NCBI GenBank assembly: GCA_963781885.1
Contig: CAWAHW010000001.1
Span: forward strand, 256,001 to 320,000
From: an uncultured Spirochaetota bacterium
GTDB taxonomy: Bacteria; Spirochaetota; Spirochaetia; SZUA-6; Fen-1364
Length of the DNA stretch: 64,000 nucleotides
Direction: 5' to 3'
A program made the position numbers and the translations under genes. A model generated the notes under the pieces. The model searched no databases. It saw only the letters and a list, made by a program, of their open reading frames with translations, and was not told the DNA's origin. This document shows positions 28,927 through 43,807 of the stretch, piece after piece; position 1 is the stretch's first letter; every line of letters begins with the position of its first letter.

Positions 28927-30285
28927 CTACCGCGAGGCGTCCTGGAGCTGTCGGTAGGCGTCCGTACTGTCCAGCGCGTCGTTGTCCTGGGCGTAGTCAA
29001 AGGCGGTCTTTCCGTCACCGTCCTGCACTTTCACGTCCGCACCGGCCTTCAGGAGGGCGGTGATCACCTCGGGGTTCTCGCTGTTGTCCGCGGCGTATAT
29101 CAGGACTGTTTTGCCGTCCTGGTCCTGCGCCTTCAGATCCGCGCCCGCTTTCAGGAGCGTCCTGATCACCTCGGGATTCCTGTTTCCCTCCGCGGCGTAC
29201 ATCAGCACGGTCTCGCCATTCTCGTCCGCGGCTTTCAGGTCCGCGCCCGCCTTCAACAGCGTCGTAATCACGTCAGGATTCCTGTTGTTCCCCGCCGCAT
29301 ACATCAGGACCGTCTTTCCACTCCCATCCGGAGCCTTGAGGTCCGCGCGTTTCTTGAGGAGAGCGTTGATCACCGCGGGGTCCCGATTGTTCTCCGCGGC
29401 GTACATCAGCACGGTCTCCCCGCTCTTGTCTTTCGCCAGGGGATCCGCGCCCGCCTGAAGCAGGGCCGTCATGACGCCAGGATTCTTGTCGTTGTCGGAA
29501 GCGTACATGAGCACGGTCTTCCCGCTCTTGTCCTGCGCCTTGGGATCCGCGCCCGCCTTCAAAATTGCCGCAATGACTCCCGGATCCTCGTTGCTGCCGA
29601 CCGCATGCATCAGGACGGTCTCTCCATCCTCGTCTTGGGCGTTGACGTCCGCGCCTTTGGTGATGGCGGCCTGCACATCCTCGAGCGTTCCGTTCTCCAC
29701 AAGGTCGAAAAAGTCGTTTGCCTTCGCGGTGTCGTCCGTGGAAGGCGCCGCCTGCTGAAGCTGTCCATAGGCGTCGGTGCCCTTCAAGGCGTCGTTGTCC
29801 TGCGCATATTCAAAGACGGTTTTTCCGTCATTGTCCTTCGCGGCGGCGTCGGCGCCCGCCTTCAGAAGCGCGACGACCGTCCCGGGCTCCTGGTTTCCCT
29901 CCGCGGCGTACATCAGCGCGGTCTCGCCGTTTTCGTCCTGCGCCTCGAGGTCCGCGCCGGCCGTCAGGAGTGTGGCGATCACCTCCGGGTTCGGGTTGCT
30001 CTCCGCGGCATACATAAGCGCGGTCTCGCCGCTCTCGTCCTGGGCTTTCAGGTCTGCGCCGGCCTTCAGAAGCGCCGCGATCACGCCCGGGTCCTTGTTG
30101 CTGGCGGCGGCGTACATCAGCATCGTCTCGCCGTTTTCATCATGGGCATTTACCTTGGCGCCCTTGGCGATGGCTGCCTTCACCTGCTGCGCGGTGCCGC
30201 TGCTTGCAAGGTCAGTGAATGTCTGCTGCGCGCCAATCGCGGTCGCCGCAGAGAAGATGAGCAAGACGACAAAAAGCCGTTTCAT
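28927..30285 (-). CDS. Secreted ankyrin-repeat protein
   Basis: Signal peptide; about 11 repeats of 34 aa (GETVLMYAA..N.NPEVI..LLKAGADLKAQD), visible as 102-bp DNA repeats. Confidence 0.92.
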   Translation of the reverse strand: MKRLFVVLLIFSAATAIGAQQTFTDLASSGTAQQVKAAIAKGAKVNAHDENGETMLMYAAASNKDPGVIAALLKAGADLKAQDESGETALMYAAESNPNPEVIATLLTAGADLEAQDENGETALMYAAEGNQEPGTVVALLKAGADAAAKDNDGKTVFEYAQDNDALKGTDAYGQLQQAAPSTDDTAKANDFFDLVENGTLEDVQAAITKGADVNAQDEDGETVLMHAVGSNEDPGVIAAILKAGADPKAQDKSGKTVLMYASDNDKNPGVMTALLQAGADPLAKDKSGETVLMYAAENNRDPAVINALLKKRADLKAPDGSGKTVLMYAAGNNRNPDVITTLLKAGADLKAADENGETVLMYAAEGNRNPEVIRTLLKAGADLKAQDQDGKTVLIYAADNSENPEVITALLKAGADVKVQDGDGKTAFDYAQDNDALDSTDAYRQLQDASR

Positions 30286-38431: not shown

Positions 38432-39706
38432 CTATGGCCGCGTCCGCTTCCGATCGCGCGGAAAAAGGGTCGCCTCTTTCACGCTCGCCAGGCCCAGTAT
38501 CTTCTGCGTGAGCCTCTCCATGCCAATGGCAAAACCCCCGTGCGGCGGGCAGCCGTACTTGAAGATCGAGAGGTAGTCCGCAAGACCTTCCGGGTTCAGA
38601 TCGAAGGCCTGAAGGTTTTCCATCAGCATGTCGTAGCGATTGATGCGAATGCTCCCCGACGTCACCTCCAGGCCGCGGAACAGGAGGTCAAAGGACTTCG
38701 TACGATTGTTCTCCGCGGGGAAGGTGTAGAAAGGCCGTGACTTGCGCGGGTAGGCAAAGACAAAGACTGCCTCCACGCCCGCCGACTTCATGGCCCAGTC
38801 GCACAGTGCGCGCTCGCCCTCCGGGCTTATCTCGTAGACCTTCTTGCCCGTCTCCTTGCTCACGATCTCCTTCGCCTCGTCGTGGGAAACCCGGGGAATG
38901 CGGGAGCAGAGGTCAGGATCGGGCACCGTTGCCTTCCATGCGTCGAGGTCCTTCTGATTGGAGGAACGGACCCCCGCGAAGATGGCCGCGAGAATGCCTG
39001 CCTCCAGGTCCATCAGCTCCTGCTCGGACTCGATGAAGGCCATCTCCACGTCCAGTGACACAAACTCGTTGATGTGCCGCGGCGTGTCGTGCTTCTCGGC
39101 CCGATACGCCGGACCGATCTCGAAGACGCGCTCCAGGCCCGCGGCGATCATGACCTGCTTATAGATCTGCGGCGACTGGGTGAGGTAGACCTTCGTGTCG
39201 AAGTAATCCACGGAGAAAAGCCCCGTCCCGCCTTCCGTGCCCGTGCCGATGAGCTTGGAGGTCTTGATCTCCGTGAAGCCCTGGCTGCGCAAATATTCGG
39301 CAAAACAGCGCAGGACCGTGGACTGCACGCGAAAGATGGAGAGGATCGAAGGGTTGCGCAGCGCGATCATCCGGTTGTCGAGTATCGATTCAAGCGACGT
39401 CTTTCCCGGGTCCTGGTTGACGGGGAAGGGCAGGTCCGGGGCGGCAGGGGAGACGACCTGCATGCTCTGCACGCGCACCTCCACGCCGCCAGGCGCCTTC
39501 TCATTCGCGGCGACGGTTCCCTGGACCTGGATGACCGTTTCCACCGTCACGTCGGGCTTCGCGTCGAAGACGAGCTGGCCCATGCCGCTTCTGTCCCGCA
39601 AGAGCACGAATGAAACGCCCCCCAGGTCCCGGATGCGATGCACCCAGCCGCTCAGGCTGACCGTGCTCCCCACGGCGCTGGGAAGCTCAGAGACAAGCGT
39701 CCGCAT
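38432..39706 (-). CDS. aspS: Non-discriminating aspartyl-tRNA synthetase (short, AspRS2/archaeal type)
   Basis: [15 protein letters not shown] loop, [18 protein letters not shown] and [12 protein letters not shown]; 424 aa; operonic with gatCAB. Confidence 0.9.
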
Positions 39707-42101
39707 TTCCCTGCTCCATTCGTGAAAGCATTTCCTCATCCGTGTCCGAGAAGGACGCGCAGACCACGAGCTTCGTCCACGCAGACTCCGTGGTGAGCGG
39801 GCCCAGGGGAATGGCCCCTTCGCGCCACAGCTCGTGGGAGCTCGTGTAGCGGGAGAAGTCCACGATGCCCTCCTGCTGCGAGGTGCAGAATATGTGCACG
39901 CCCTTCTCCCGCGCGGCAAGGAGCGCACGTCGCAGCGAGTAGGGGGAGTCGCGGAGATTTGCCGTGCCCGTGTCATAAAGCTCGAGCACGAAGTTCTTCA
40001 CGCCGCGATCCATGAGCTCGATGAGATGGTCGCCCCGCATGCCCGGGTAGACGCGGAGGATGAGGGAGGTGTCGATGGCGGCCTCCAGGCGCGCGCGCAA
40101 CGCGTCGCGGTCCTGCGCGAAGGGCACCTCCGCAAAGAGCGGGCTCCCGGTGTGACAGGGTTTCGCCATGTTCCAGTTGCGAAACCCGTCGGCAGCGATG
40201 CGCTCGAATTTCAGATTGACCGGCGAAAGGATCCGGCCCCCGAATGCGACATACACCCCGGGCTCCATCTCCTCCGCGGCCTGTATCGCGCGGCGCAGCG
40301 TGGGAATGGCGTCGCTGCCCGGCCAACCCGCCGGCTGCAGGGCTGCGGCAAGCACGATGGGCACGGGAGGCCGGGGGAAAAGCCAGTACACGAGCGACGC
40401 CGTGTAAGACAAGGTGTCCGTGCCGTGCGTCACGACGATGCCCGCCGCCCTTCCGCCGCGCAGCCTTTCGTCGATGAGGGAAATGAGCCGCGCCCAGTCA
40501 TCGGGGGTGATCTCTTCCGAAAGGATGCGGCCGACCTCACCCTCTTCGAATGCGATCTTTCGGGAAAAGGCGCCTTCCGCTTCCAGGAGGCGCATGATCT
40601 CCGCGGGGTCGCCTGCCCCGACGTCGCCTTGCGCGGAGGTGGTGCCCGCAATGGCGCCGCCCAGGGAAAGGATCTGGATCACCGACACGGCGAGCTTCTG
40701 CTTCACCAGGGATTGCACGCGCGCGGGGTCGGCGCGACCCGAGGTGGCGTGCATGATCTCACCGATCAGGAACGTGGTGGGCCTGCTGTCGCCGCCGCGG
40801 ATGGTGGCCACCGCCGCCGGGTGAGCAGCCATGACCTTTTCAATATAGCCGGCCAGGACGCCGGGGTCCGTGATCTGTTCCCAGCCCTTTTCCCGGATTA
40901 TCGCCGCGGGATCCTTGTCCTCCGCGAATATCGCTTCGACCACGGACTTGGCGATGCGGCCGTGGATGCGCTTGTCCGCCAGGAGCTGGAGCATTTCCGC
41001 GAAGCGCTCCGGTGTGAGCGGGCTCTGGGAAAGAGACGCCCCTGTCCGATTGAGATGCTTCTTCACGTCGGAGGCAAGCCAGAGCGCCGCGCTTTTCGCA
41101 TCCGCTCCCCGCTTCACCGAGGCTTCGAAGAAATCCGCCGTTTCCCTCTCTTCGCAGAGGAAGTCAGCCTGGTCCTCCGACAGCCCCATCGCGTCGATGA
41201 AGCGCTTCTTGCGCGCCTCGGGAAGCTCCACGAGTGCCCTCTCCACGCCGCGGAGGAAGTCCGCATCCGGGGCGAAGGGCGGCAGGTCGGGCTCGGGGAA
41301 ATAGCGGTAGTCGGACGAGCTCTCCTTTGTCCGCATGCTCTCCGTCACGTCGCGGTTCTCGTTCCACAGGCGCGTCTCCTGCGTGACGGTGCCTCCCCGG
41401 CTCAGGATCTCCGTCTGGCGCTCGATCTCGAACGTGATCGCTTTGCGGACGAACTTGAAGGAGTTGAGGTTCTTCACCTCGACCTTGCACCCCAGTCCCT
41501 GCCCCTCGAGATTGACGGACACGTTGGCATCGCAGCGCAGCGAGCCTTCCTCCATGTTCCCGTCGCAGACCCCGAGATAGCGCACCATGCGGCGGAGCTG
41601 TTGGAGGAAGACCTCCGCCTCTTCCCCGACCTCCAGGTCGGGCTGCGTGACGATCTCCAGGAGAGGCGTACCGGCCCGGTTGTAGTCCAGGAGAGTCATG
41701 TCCCCGGCATGGATCATCTTGCCGGCGTCCTCCTCCAGGTGCACCTCCCGGATGCGGACGCGCTTGCGGCGCTTGCGCAGCTCGATGTCCACCCAGCCGT
41801 CGGTGCCCAACGGGGAGCGGAACTGCGAAATCTGGTAGTTCTTCGGCAGGTCGGGATAGAAGTAGTTCTTCCGCTCGAAGAGCGTGGAGGCGGCAAGGGT
41901 GCAGTTCAGCGCGCGCGCAACGACGTAGCCCATGCGGATCGCTTCCGCGTTCAGGGCGGGGAGCACCCCAGGATAGCCCATGCAGACGGGGCAGACATTC
42001 GTGTTGGGCTCGGAGCCGAAGGCGGCGCGGCAACCGCAGAAGACCTTCGTCCGCGTGAGAAGCTGGGTGTGGACCTCAAGACCGAGGTAGGAGACGTACA
42101 T
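39687..42101 (-). CDS. gatB: GatB fused to a C-terminal L-asparaginase/GatD-like domain
   Basis: GLEVH, RKNYFYPDLPKNYQISQ, HLEEDAGK, EVKNLNS, YRYFPEPDL and a YqeY-like tail; then about 330 aa with LGGAIA, HGTDT and LTTESAWTKL. Confidence 0.9.
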   Translation of the reverse strand: MYVSYLGLEVHTQLLTRTKVFCGCRAAFGSEPNTNVCPVCMGYPGVLPALNAEAIRMGYVVARALNCTLAASTLFERKNYFYPDLPKNYQISQFRSPLGTDGWVDIELRKRRKRVRIREVHLEEDAGKMIHAGDMTLLDYNRAGTPLLEIVTQPDLEVGEEAEVFLQQLRRMVRYLGVCDGNMEEGSLRCDANVSVNLEGQGLGCKVEVKNLNSFKFVRKAITFEIERQTEILSRGGTVTQETRLWNENRDVTESMRTKESSSDYRYFPEPDLPPFAPDADFLRGVERALVELPEARKKRFIDAMGLSEDQADFLCEERETADFFEASVKRGADAKSAALWLASDVKKHLNRTGASLSQSPLTPERFAEMLQLLADKRIHGRIAKSVVEAIFAEDKDPAAIIREKGWEQITDPGVLAGYIEKVMAAHPAAVATIRGGDSRPTTFLIGEIMHATSGRADPARVQSLVKQKLAVSVIQILSLGGAIAGTTSAQGDVGAGDPAEIMRLLEAEGAFSRKIAFEEGEVGRILSEEITPDDWARLISLIDERLRGGRAAGIVVTHGTDTLSYTASLVYWLFPRPPVPIVLAAALQPAGWPGSDAIPTLRRAIQAAEEMEPGVYVAFGGRILSPVNLKFERIAADGFRNWNMAKPCHTGSPLFAEVPFAQDRDALRARLEAAIDTSLILRVYPGMRGDHLIELMDRGVKNFVLELYDTGTANLRDSPYSLRRALLAAREKGVHIFCTSQQEGIVDFSRYTSSHELWREGAIPLGPLTTESAWTKLVVCASFSDTDEEMLSRMEQGNADACL

Positions 42102-42103
42102 CG

Positions 42104-43487
42104 CTACCTCCATCCTGCCGGAAAGCCCGGAGCATCGGGGGACGGGAAGGCCTTCTCCAGCTCTCGGCAGGCAGCGAAAAGCGCGTCCTCCCCGAAGGCA
42201 GGAGCGAGGAACTGCATGCCGATGGGCAGCCCCGCCTCCACCGCGGCGGGAAAGGAGAGGGCGGGCAGCCCCGCGAGATTGGCGGCGCAGGTGAAGATGT
42301 CGGCGAGCTTCTGCGTGAAAGGATCCGCATCGGCGCCTCCCCGTGTGAAAGGCGGCACCGGATAGACGGGCATGAGCACGAGGTCCACGCCGCTGAATGC
42401 CTTCTGGAAGTCATTGCGGATTGCCGTACGGATCTTCTGCGCCCGCAGGTAGTACTCGTCCTGAAAGCCCGAGCGCAGGACGTAGGTGCCCAGGAGGATG
42501 CGCAGCTTCACCTCGGGCCCCAGCCCTGCCGTGCGGGAGGCAACCGTCATGGCATCCGGCGTCTCCGCGCGCGGCGAGCGTTTTCCGTAACGCACGCCGT
42601 CGAAACGGGCCAGGTTTGCGCTCGCCTCTGCCGTGGCAATGACATAATAGGAGGAGACAACGTGGTCCAAGGTCGGAAACGATATCTCGTGCACCGCGTG
42701 GCCCAGCTCTTCCAGCCTGCGCCGTGTCTTTTCGAAGGTCTTCTTCACGTCGGCATGCATGGGCACGTCGGCGCACTCCCGCGGCACGCCGATGGAGAGC
42801 TTCCCCCGGGGCTTGCCTGCCCGGCTGCCACGCGAGGGACGACTGGTCGAGCGCATCGGCGCCGCGCATGAGGGAAAAGGCCTTCTCCGTCATGTCCACG
42901 GTCTTTGCCATGACGCCGATCACTTCCAGGGACGAGGCGTAGGCGACAAGCCCGAATCGGGAGACTGCTCCCCAGGTAGGCTTCAGGCCGTAGATGCCGC
43001 AAAAGGAAGCCGGCTGCCGGACGGATCCGCCCGTGTCGCTTCCCAGCCCGAATGCCGCAAAGCCGGCGGCAACCGCCGCGGCAGACCCGCCGCTTGAGCC
43101 CCCCGGCACCCGGTCGGGGTTCCACGGGTTTCGCGTGACCTTGAGGGCGGAGTTCTCCGTGGACGAGCCCATGCCGAACTCGTCGAGATTCGTCTTTCCG
43201 GCAACCACCGCGCCCGCCTTCTGCAGCCGTTCCACCACCGTGGCCGAGTAGGGAGAGACGAAATCGGAGAGCAGCCGGGAGCCGCAGGTGAGTCGGAAGC
43301 CGCGGACGGCGATATTGTCCTTGACGGCAAATGGAACGCCCGCAAGCGGACCCTCCGGGGCGGAATCCGCCGCGCCGAGAACGGGATCGAACTGGAGGAA
43401 GCTGCCCACGGCGTCATCGCGCGACGCGACGAAAGCCTTCCACCGCTCCCGTGATTCCGCATGTGCCGCCAGGCCCAGCCAGTCCAT
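42104..43487 (-). CDS. gatA: Glu/Asp-tRNA amidotransferase subunit A with an apparent frameshift near 42800-42830
   Basis: [28 protein letters not shown] and GSDTGGS in ORF 42411-43487; [14 protein letters not shown] and GLPIGMQ in ORF 42104-42856. Confidence 0.88.
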
Positions 43488-43522: not shown

Positions 43523-43807
43523 TCAGAGTACGTTCGGAATGACGATGAAGCGGTCCTCGCGCTCGGGAGAGCTGTCGAGGAGCGTGGCGGAGAGCGACGG
43601 CCCGGTTTCGACGTCCGCGCGAAGGCGATTCTCGCGCAGAAGCGGGTGGGTGGTCGGCTCCAAGCCTTGAATGTCGATCTCTTTCATGTGGGAGAAGTGC
43701 TGGAGCATCTGCTCGACGGCGACTCCGAGCCTGCCAAGCTCATCATCGGTCAGGGACAGGCGGGCCATGCGTGCCGTGAGCTTGAGCTCCGTGGCGTCCA
43801 TGGACAC
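43523..43807 (-). CDS. gatC: Amidotransferase subunit C
   Basis: [17 protein letters not shown] and FIVIPNVL; directly upstream of gatA. Confidence 0.9.

Follow-up and report, generated by a model that had tools for sequence, protein, structure and literature searches.

Why should a bacterial GatB, the partner of the amidase GatA, run on into the fold of an asparaginase? GatCAB and GatDE are independent answers to the same need, the first with an amidase and the second with an asparaginase as ammonia donor, and a locus in an uncultured Spirochaetota bacterium holds parts of both. We analysed a 64,000-nucleotide (nt) stretch of this genome (assembly GCA_963781885.1, contig CAWAHW010000001.1, positions 256,001 to 320,000; hereafter the window, from whose first letter all window coordinates are counted), in which gatB lies in an operon ordered gatC, gatA, gatB, aspS and continues in frame into an asparaginase-like domain, which we refer to as AsnL, with alanine at the site of the nucleophile threonine. 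On balance, and with modest confidence, we favour the reading that AsnL is a non-hydrolytic accessory module which dimerises to pair two GatCAB units, while GatB works normally with GatA and GatC.

One reading frame encodes GatB and an asparaginase fold

The fused gene (gatB~AsnL) is a single stop-free frame at 39687..42113 on the minus strand, 808 amino acids (aa) long when counted from the first ATG; a second methionine codon at 42101, 2 nt past the gatA stop, yields the same 804 aa as the database gene calls (P0003, 804 aa). A first, sequence-only reading of this DNA had described one frame of about 804 aa with a full GatB and an asparaginase-like part, and the frame, Pfam and NCBIfam all bear this out. 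The GatB half, residues 1-475 (40689..42113, minus strand, likely start 42101), matches GatB_N at residues 10-286 (1.5e-113) and GatB_Yqey at 327-474 (4e-42), both above the Pfam gathering scores, and passes the NCBIfam equivalog cut-offs for GatB (NF004012, 613.6 bits vs. 338; TIGR00133, 539.4 vs. 314.8). Cradle, helical and YqeY tail domains are all present, and the GatB membership motifs are retained, among them GLEVH, KNYFYPDLPKNYQISQ, KNYFYPDxPKxYQISQ, HLEEDAGK and CDANVS; GLEVH, KNYFYPDxPKxYQISQ, HLEEDAGK and CDANVS are the catalytic motifs of the cradle.

A linker of only about 3-5 residues (KQKLAV-SVIQIL) leads into AsnL, residues 476-808 (39690..40688, minus strand, with the stop codon at 39687-39689), where Pfam places Asparaginase at 479-648 (1.4e-29) and Asparaginase_C at 685-794 (1.2e-11), again above the gathering scores. 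AsnL fails the curated cut-off for type I asparaginases (TIGR00519, 107.6 bits vs. 260.5) and both equivalog cut-offs for GatD (106.5 bits vs. 310 and 103.8 vs. 324), and the matches to the GatD models begin at model positions 67 and 52, so that the GatD N-terminal domain is absent. The earlier label of a GatD-like domain therefore stands for the architecture and not for the sequence, which is nearer to the Pyrococcus-type asparaginases.

AlphaFold2, run on the fused protein with a 51-row alignment, gave a model with a mean predicted local distance difference test (pLDDT) score of 86 and a predicted template modelling (pTM) score of 0.57. Foldseek matched the N-terminal part of the model to GatB (3ip4_B, template modelling (TM) score 0.81) and the C-terminal part to Thermococcus/Pyrococcus asparaginases (5ot0, 4q0m and 1wls, TM 0.79-0.81) and to GatD (1zq1_A, TM 0.61). 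The likeness to type I asparaginase that had been noted by eye is confirmed by Pfam and Foldseek, which both show the two-domain fold in AsnL.

An antisense open frame of 843 aa (39834-42365, plus strand) also lies across the fused gene; its make-up carries no family signal, and it is a shadow frame of G+C-rich DNA.

The fusion recurs across Spirochaetota

The fusion is real and not an artefact. Among 41 related genomes, 16 carry a single uninterrupted full-length match (60-100% identity) and in a further 10 both halves are present but interrupted by contig ends or frame breaks. Searching 5.8 billion proteins with the asparaginase part returned 670 matches of 444-1414 aa, and all four Pfam domains, those of GatB and those of asparaginase, were found together in 111 of the 120 best, as the proposed domain architecture would predict. 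The 1.84 billion cluster representatives gave 39 matches below 1e-30, of which 14 were proteins of 743-817 aa that match at their C-terminal end and the others were fragments; no protein of GatD length was among the 150 matches listed from this search. The next tier below the fused forms consists of stand-alone asparaginases of at most 396 aa and ~30% identity. No stand-alone AsnL gene was seen in these searches, the protein search having covered 444-1414 aa with no search made at shorter lengths; four short matches considered as candidates (P0123, P0129, P0134, P0141) all start inside the GatB tail and are fragments. The ESM Atlas returned generic asparaginase clusters only. Genome-locus counts, here and below, rest on 80 loci kept of 582 matches, and Spirochaetota records supply all 80 (Treponema, a Gracilinema caldarium metagenome-assembled genome (MAG), Alkalispirochaeta and Treponematales). 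The fused family spans hundreds of Spirochaetota proteins, and its deep branch includes one Candidatus Wallbacteria record.

AsnL is under purifying selection. Pairwise ratios of non-synonymous to synonymous substitution rates (dN/dS) among six close genes of the operon type (class A, below) are 0.06-0.21 for AsnL and 0.06-0.16 for the GatB half, the ratios being rough at a dS of ~1-2. One could take the fusion for a decaying pseudogene, or for an artefact of assembly or annotation, given the frameshift in the neighbouring gatA of the same assembly, but the uninterrupted fused frame in many independent assemblies, a dN/dS far below 1 and a structure model that is confident across the GatB-AsnL junction make this vanishingly improbable. 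The absence of a stop or indel between the domains, on which the sequence-only reading depended, is seen in many relatives.

The nucleophile is lost and the surrounding residues are mostly kept

Within AsnL we located the motifs SLGGAIAG (483-490), ILSEEITPDDW (530-540), HGTDT (563-567) and NLKFERIA (633-640). A HMMER alignment to the Pyrococcus horikoshii asparaginase 1wls (3.4e-30) sets Ala487 (codon GCC, 40653..40655, minus strand) against the threonine of GGTIAS, the asparaginase nucleophile, and gives same-residue counterparts for Ser532, for HGTDT (40413..40427, minus strand), which holds the second threonine and the aspartate of the asparaginase triad, and for Lys635 (40209..40211, minus strand), which aligns with the triad lysine. 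The tyrosine of GERGY in 1wls, the lid-loop tyrosine, pairs with Ala500. The window's AsnL therefore has Thr565, Asp566 and Lys635 of the triad, with the nucleophile threonine and the lid tyrosine replaced, much as had been noted from GGAIA standing for GGTIA beside an intact HGTDT, serine and lysine.

Whether the change from threonine to alanine is conserved has a clear answer. The nucleophile motif reads GGA in 113 of 120 fused proteins, GGS in three and GGT in none (four unmatched), against GGT in 93 and GGA in none of 111 matches of stand-alone length (18 unmatched). Across the 80 loci the position holds A in 59, S in 7, T in 6, E in 2, G in 2 and L in 1, with 3 unread, while HGTDT is retained in 76 and the lysine in 69, arginine replacing it in 7; deep fused branches read HGLDT, HGADT or GGLDS and have R, Q or H at the lysine position. 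Gly485, Gly486, Asp566 and Thr567 are invariant among 51 diverse fused proteins, with Ser532 and Glu533 conserved in 90% or more. Equally conserved are family-specific motifs unseen in ordinary asparaginases: FRNWN (644-648), LELY..GT...R (710-721), CTSQQ (743-747) and G..P.G.LT.E (766-776). Judged from these residues, the pattern fits a pocket that is preserved and yet non-hydrolytic. AsnL is also acidic (median isoelectric point ~5.0, net charge -10 to -13, vs. 6.4 and -2 in the stand-alone outgroup), and we set aside direct RNA binding by the domain as unlikely on this ground.

AsnL is predicted to form a homodimer

Residues 476-808 were predicted to pair with themselves, with an interaction score from predicted aligned errors (ipSAE) of 0.87 (median of three runs) whereas the best of three controls scored 0.00; 97% or more of the contacts are shared between runs, and partner pLDDT is 84 or higher. 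When the tool was calibrated, 20 of 30 solved homomers and 1 of 23 single chains came up to its mark; since every solved asparaginase is a dimer, AsnL may have passed through its resemblance to those structures. The predicted interface takes in the family-invariant motifs at 531-540, 565-571, 684-693, 713-726 and 746-749, around the former active site. Of the roles first suggested for the extra domain, that of an oligomerisation scaffold thus gains from the model as far as self-pairing is concerned.

Three classes of fused protein with a probable single origin

The fused proteins fall into three classes. Class A, the window's kind, makes up 36 of the 80 loci, with the gene order gatC-gatA-gatB~AsnL-aspS and a GatB half 60-85% identical to the window's; aspS is present in 36 of 36 loci and gatA in 35 of 36, the remaining locus beginning inside the fused gene. 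Class B, the other 44 loci, is solitary, without gatC, gatA or aspS in the flanks examined, and is 31-44% identical to the window's protein in the GatB half and 39-53% in AsnL. Its cradle motifs are degenerate, with GLEVH becoming xLExR, KNYFYPDLPKNYQISQ lost and CDANVS becoming CNAYVA; the histidine and KNYFYPD occur together in 98 of 98 full-length class A proteins vs. 0 of 96 of class B, in 36 of which the histidine site was unmatched by the search pattern. His15 of GatE is essential (PMC2330236).

Five class B genomes were checked for other amidotransferase genes. Four have a separate gatA-gatB pair; in three of them the unfused GatB lies above the GatB cut-off and the fused paralogue below it, and in G045 both lie above. 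The fifth, G044, yielded neither gatA nor another gatB. NCBI names class B proteins "asparaginase domain-containing protein", and they occur in cultured Treponema primitia and Breznakiella homolactica. Class B paralogues (L027-L096; P0307, P0371) were also seen in the Gracilinema caldarium MAG and in many termite-gut and rumen MAGs.

Class B argues that the role of AsnL needs the GatB scaffold but not GatB catalysis, and it is here that a job unrelated to amidotransfer comes into consideration: AsnL, together with the tRNA-binding GatB scaffold, would act on tRNA(Asn) or aminoacyl-tRNA or sequester it, for instance in regulation or deacylation, with class B as the specialised form and class A as bifunctional. 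Class B does keep its YqeY tail (126.7 bits) and AsnL on a decayed cradle (GatB_N 137 bits vs. 379), the separate gatA-gatB pairs just described (in all genomes checked save G044) agree with such a role, and between classes AsnL is more alike than the GatB half; the acidity of AsnL nevertheless speaks against direct RNA binding, no chemistry is evident without the nucleophile, and the proposal is inferential throughout, so we consider it quite unlikely.

Class C (P0151, P0152, P0155, P0156, P0160) retains the GatB motifs where checked (P0156 was left out of the motif check), and its AsnL reads HGLDT, HGADT or GGLDS in place of HGTDT. The operon is the same as in class A at the sole recovered locus (L123), to which knowledge of class C context is confined, a metagenome scan with P0152 having returned only its own contig and ordinary GatBs. 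Directly upstream of gatC in L123 (2276-4243, plus strand) lies a gene for a 655-aa protein with permuted asparaginase motifs (HGTDT before GGTID) and an N-terminal region of ~170 aa ahead of them.

We compared the histories of the two halves with quick maximum-likelihood trees, supported by Shimodaira-Hasegawa-like approximate likelihood ratio tests (SH-aLRT) without bootstraps and containing long branches. The AsnL halves all fall into a single clade (SH-aLRT 100) when set against the 24 nearest stand-alone asparaginases, with class C basal and A and B as sisters. The tree of GatB halves is congruent: the three fused classes group together in a clade (99) that excludes 12 canonical spirochaete GatBs but takes in three unfused operon copies (G030, G037, G041), and within it class B forms one clade on a long stem (100). 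The simplest reading of these trees is that the fusion arose once, that AsnL was later lost at least twice and that a single duplication gave rise to class B. AsnL is accessory, because G030 carries a complete gatC-gatA-gatB-aspS operon without it. The class-A-type GatBs without AsnL in G030 (L107), G037 and G041 look like secondary losses, and G041 has a class B paralogue elsewhere in its genome.

Operon and pathway setting

All genes of the operon lie on the minus strand, with gatC and gatA directly upstream of the fused gene. gatC (43523..43807, 94 aa) scores 58.4 bits against TIGR00135 (cut-off 47.1). aspS (38432..39706, 424 aa), whose ATG overlaps the 3' end of the fused gene by 20 nt, encodes an archaeal-type non-discriminating (ND) AspRS (NF003483, identified as aspartate--tRNA(Asn) ligase, 514.6 bits > 353; TIGR00458, 402.5 > 368.4). 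The gatCAB-aspS operon of the sequence-only reading therefore holds for gatC and aspS, both above their cut-offs, and needs correction for gatA, which lies in two frames in this assembly. Its N-terminal part (42822..43487, model positions ~54-232) contains the KDNI motif and scores 284.7 bits against TIGR00132 for the piece alone, and its C-terminal part (42104..42808, model positions ~243-464) scores 212.7 bits in another frame. Between them, comparison with four in-frame relatives points to a C4G5 homopolymer run (42803..42811) as the probable site of a 1-nt frameshift; the stretch around the run, which is short and variable, measures 29 nt in the window vs. 28 nt in the relatives. The gatA adjoining fused gatB in relatives is intact and above the TIGR00132 cut-off, the split being confined to the window assembly, and frame breaks in these genes are many in related few-contig assemblies (G009, G014; L022). 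On these grounds the gatA frameshift is probably an assembly indel error; the alternative is a very recent pseudogene. A public DNA run that shares a third of sampled words and gave short, low-depth contigs has depth 0 at bin 42768-42911 and leaves the junction at ~40688 uncovered; no RNA run was listed as sharing them.

An intact GatA bears directly on whether AsnL supplies ammonia. The sequence-only reading had offered a second amide donor site, and AsnL could indeed be a surviving amidase, a GatD-like second donor working through another nucleophile (Thr565 or the partner's YDTGT threonine): HGTDT stands in 76 of the 80 loci and the lysine in 69, Thr717 of LELYDTGT, conserved in 90% or more, contacts Asp566/Thr567 across the predicted interface, and 13 of the 80 loci have threonine or serine at the nucleophile position. 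A second ammonia donor is unlikely, however, because amidase-competent GatA adjoins the fused gene in relatives, gatA being kept in all but one of the operon loci. Besides S and T, the residues A, G, E and L are all accepted at the nucleophile position, GGT occurs in 0 of the 120 close fused forms, the lid tyrosine has become alanine, and triad residues are lost in deep branches; class B, moreover, carries AsnL on a GatB half without catalytic motifs and so has no competent site to take ammonia. AsnL is also joined to the tail domain, which in GatB structures lies far from the cradle. That the missing threonine is the very nucleophile of GatD and other asparaginases (PMC2330236) counts further against an amidase, and we judge this role very unlikely.

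The source genome, 92.55% complete, has further genes for AsnRS (464.9 bits), for GlnRS (671.8 bits) and for a bacterial AspRS (723 bits). AsnA was not found in it, Asn_synthase gave only a 64-residue match of 25.7 bits, and a query with the fused protein turned up no second GatB. By analogy with the pattern described in PMC2330236, the pathway would be the tRNA-dependent asparagine route of the Thermus/Deinococcus type. AsnB is above its cut-off in G023, G031, G030 and G037 and not in G029, G038, G041 or G043; the fused operon as a marker of AsnB-less genomes is contradicted by AsnB in G023 and G031.

This setting also raises a sensor role, in which AsnL would bind free asparagine (or aspartate, glutamine or glutamate) without turnover and allosterically slow or speed the tRNA-dependent route; a cell that also has AsnRS could then shut the indirect path when asparagine is available, and such a role is compatible with a dimer. 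AsnRS and the indirect route do coexist in the source genome, residues aligned with substrate-binding positions are kept (Ser532 and Glu533 at no less than 90%, Asp566 invariant, Thr567 and Lys635 mostly), the losses are limited to the nucleophile and the lid tyrosine, and solved Thr-to-Ala asparaginase mutants hold asparagine in the site, going by the entry titles of 5dnc and 7c8x. Set against this, the same conserved residues lie in the predicted dimer interface, where their conservation may be structural, the second threonine and the lysine are replaced in deep branches, and AsnL is unlinked to the presence or absence of AsnB. We regard sensing as possible but somewhat unlikely.

In three genomes (G023, G031, G038) a canonical gatA-gatB pair exists apart from the fused operon with its aspS, and these two amidotransferase sets may divide asparagine and glutamine duties between them. 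The source genome also has, on contig C1 at ~132.6-133.1 kb (L002:1489-1986), a 165-aa protein consisting of an asparaginase N-terminal domain only, with GGT and HGTDT intact; weak matches of that kind, in open frames of 120-352 aa (mostly 165-198), occur in most genomes of the genus. Elsewhere in the window, 28927-30285 (minus strand) encodes a 452-aa protein that is ankyrin-like by eye; its start resembles a signal peptide, and its repeats of ~33 aa are very regular.

How AsnL may work with GatCAB

Our preferred reading, an accessory module that pairs GatCAB units, starts from what is observed of the fusion and its conservation, the loss of the nucleophile, the retention of GatA and purifying selection. 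The fused gene would encode a working GatB subunit of Asp-tRNA(Asn) amidotransferase, with GatA, encoded next door, as the presumed ammonia donor, and AsnL, placed directly after the tRNA-binding YqeY tail, would have lost amide hydrolysis. From the predicted dimer we infer a scaffold: an intimate homodimer of the asparaginase type would bring two units together as (GatCAB)2, parallel to GatD2-GatE2, and such a complex would suit the dimeric ND-AspRS, whose overlapping downstream gene would be translated together with that of GatB. The former active-site pocket, at the predicted interface and with Ser532, Thr565, Asp566 and Lys635 kept, may bind an amino acid and so tune the pathway.

Several observations weigh against this account. 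Class B carries AsnL on an off-locus GatB half without catalytic motifs, which pairing of active GatCAB leaves unexplained, and the operons without AsnL in G030 and G037, with the unfused operon copy in G041, mark the domain as dispensable for the core function. AsnB occurs beside the fused operon in some genomes (G023, G031), so that the indirect path is not everywhere the sole route. With threonine at the nucleophile position in six class B loci and serine in seven loci overall, some members could be active, and the retention of HGTDT and the lysine seems to exceed what a pure scaffold needs, though both lie in the predicted interface. The AsnL dimer is itself a model and perhaps a product of likeness to solved asparaginase dimers, and the gatA frameshift in the window assembly, if real, would mean a broken pathway copy.

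Relation to known systems and significance

The fused protein resembles archaeal GatDE, the Glu-tRNA(Gln) amidotransferase, in layout and not in chemistry. Both join a GatB-family kinase/transamidase to a module of type-I-asparaginase fold, and as the GatD homodimer holds two GatE (PMC2330236), a predicted AsnL dimer would hold two GatB. Unlike in GatDE, the two are fused in cis here, and AsnL follows the YqeY tail on its C-terminal side, without the GatD N-terminal domain and with alanine for the nucleophile threonine; GatA and GatC are still present, and the partner is GatB, not GatE. A bolder proposal is a single bacterial assembly of the GatDE kind, asparaginase fused to GatB with the chemistry switched off, whose dead site at the AsnL dimer interface serves as an amino-acid-gated hub for feedback by free asparagine, the Treponema-type duplicate having become a doubly dead, dimeric, tRNA(Asn)-binding regulator of canonical GatCAB/AspRS; we think this unlikely.

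Thermus thermophilus and Deinococcus radiodurans (PMC2330236) offer the same set of AsnRS, GlnRS, bacterial AspRS, an extra archaeal-type ND-AspRS and GatCAB with no AsnA or AsnB found. Their GatBs are without the extra domain, whereas here four genes lie in one operon with overlapping frames, and AsnB occurs in some relatives with the fused operon. The type I L-asparaginases of Pyrococcus and Thermococcus (1wls, 4q0m, 5ot0) are the best solved relatives of AsnL by sequence and fold, with the same two-domain fold and the intimate-dimer interface that is predicted for AsnL; AsnL differs in having lost the nucleophile threonine and lid tyrosine and in its motifs FRNWN, LELYDTGTANLR and CTSQQEG. 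Covalent tethering of parts of indirect aminoacylation has precedents in AspRS-GatC (NCBIfam PRK12820) and in the GlnRS-YqeY fusion of Deinococcus (from a title cited in PMC2330236), but these join active or tRNA-binding parts and include no catalytically degenerate asparaginase fold. We found no description of a GatB-asparaginase fusion in the full-text literature, whose coverage excludes most subscription journals, so that an earlier mention is possible.

Present annotation labels the operon form plain GatB, and the extra 330 residues stay hidden. The finding describes a bacterial lineage whose GatB bears both a GatA partner and an asparaginase fold, one that lost its nucleophile long ago and is still held under selection as a fold. 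The Treponema-type paralogue, degenerate in both halves, is an unannotated protein family in cultured termite-gut spirochaetes. If AsnL does pair GatCAB or sense asparagine, a regulatory or assembly module built into a bacterial transamidosome would be described here for the first time, and nature would have converted an enzyme to structural or sensing use.

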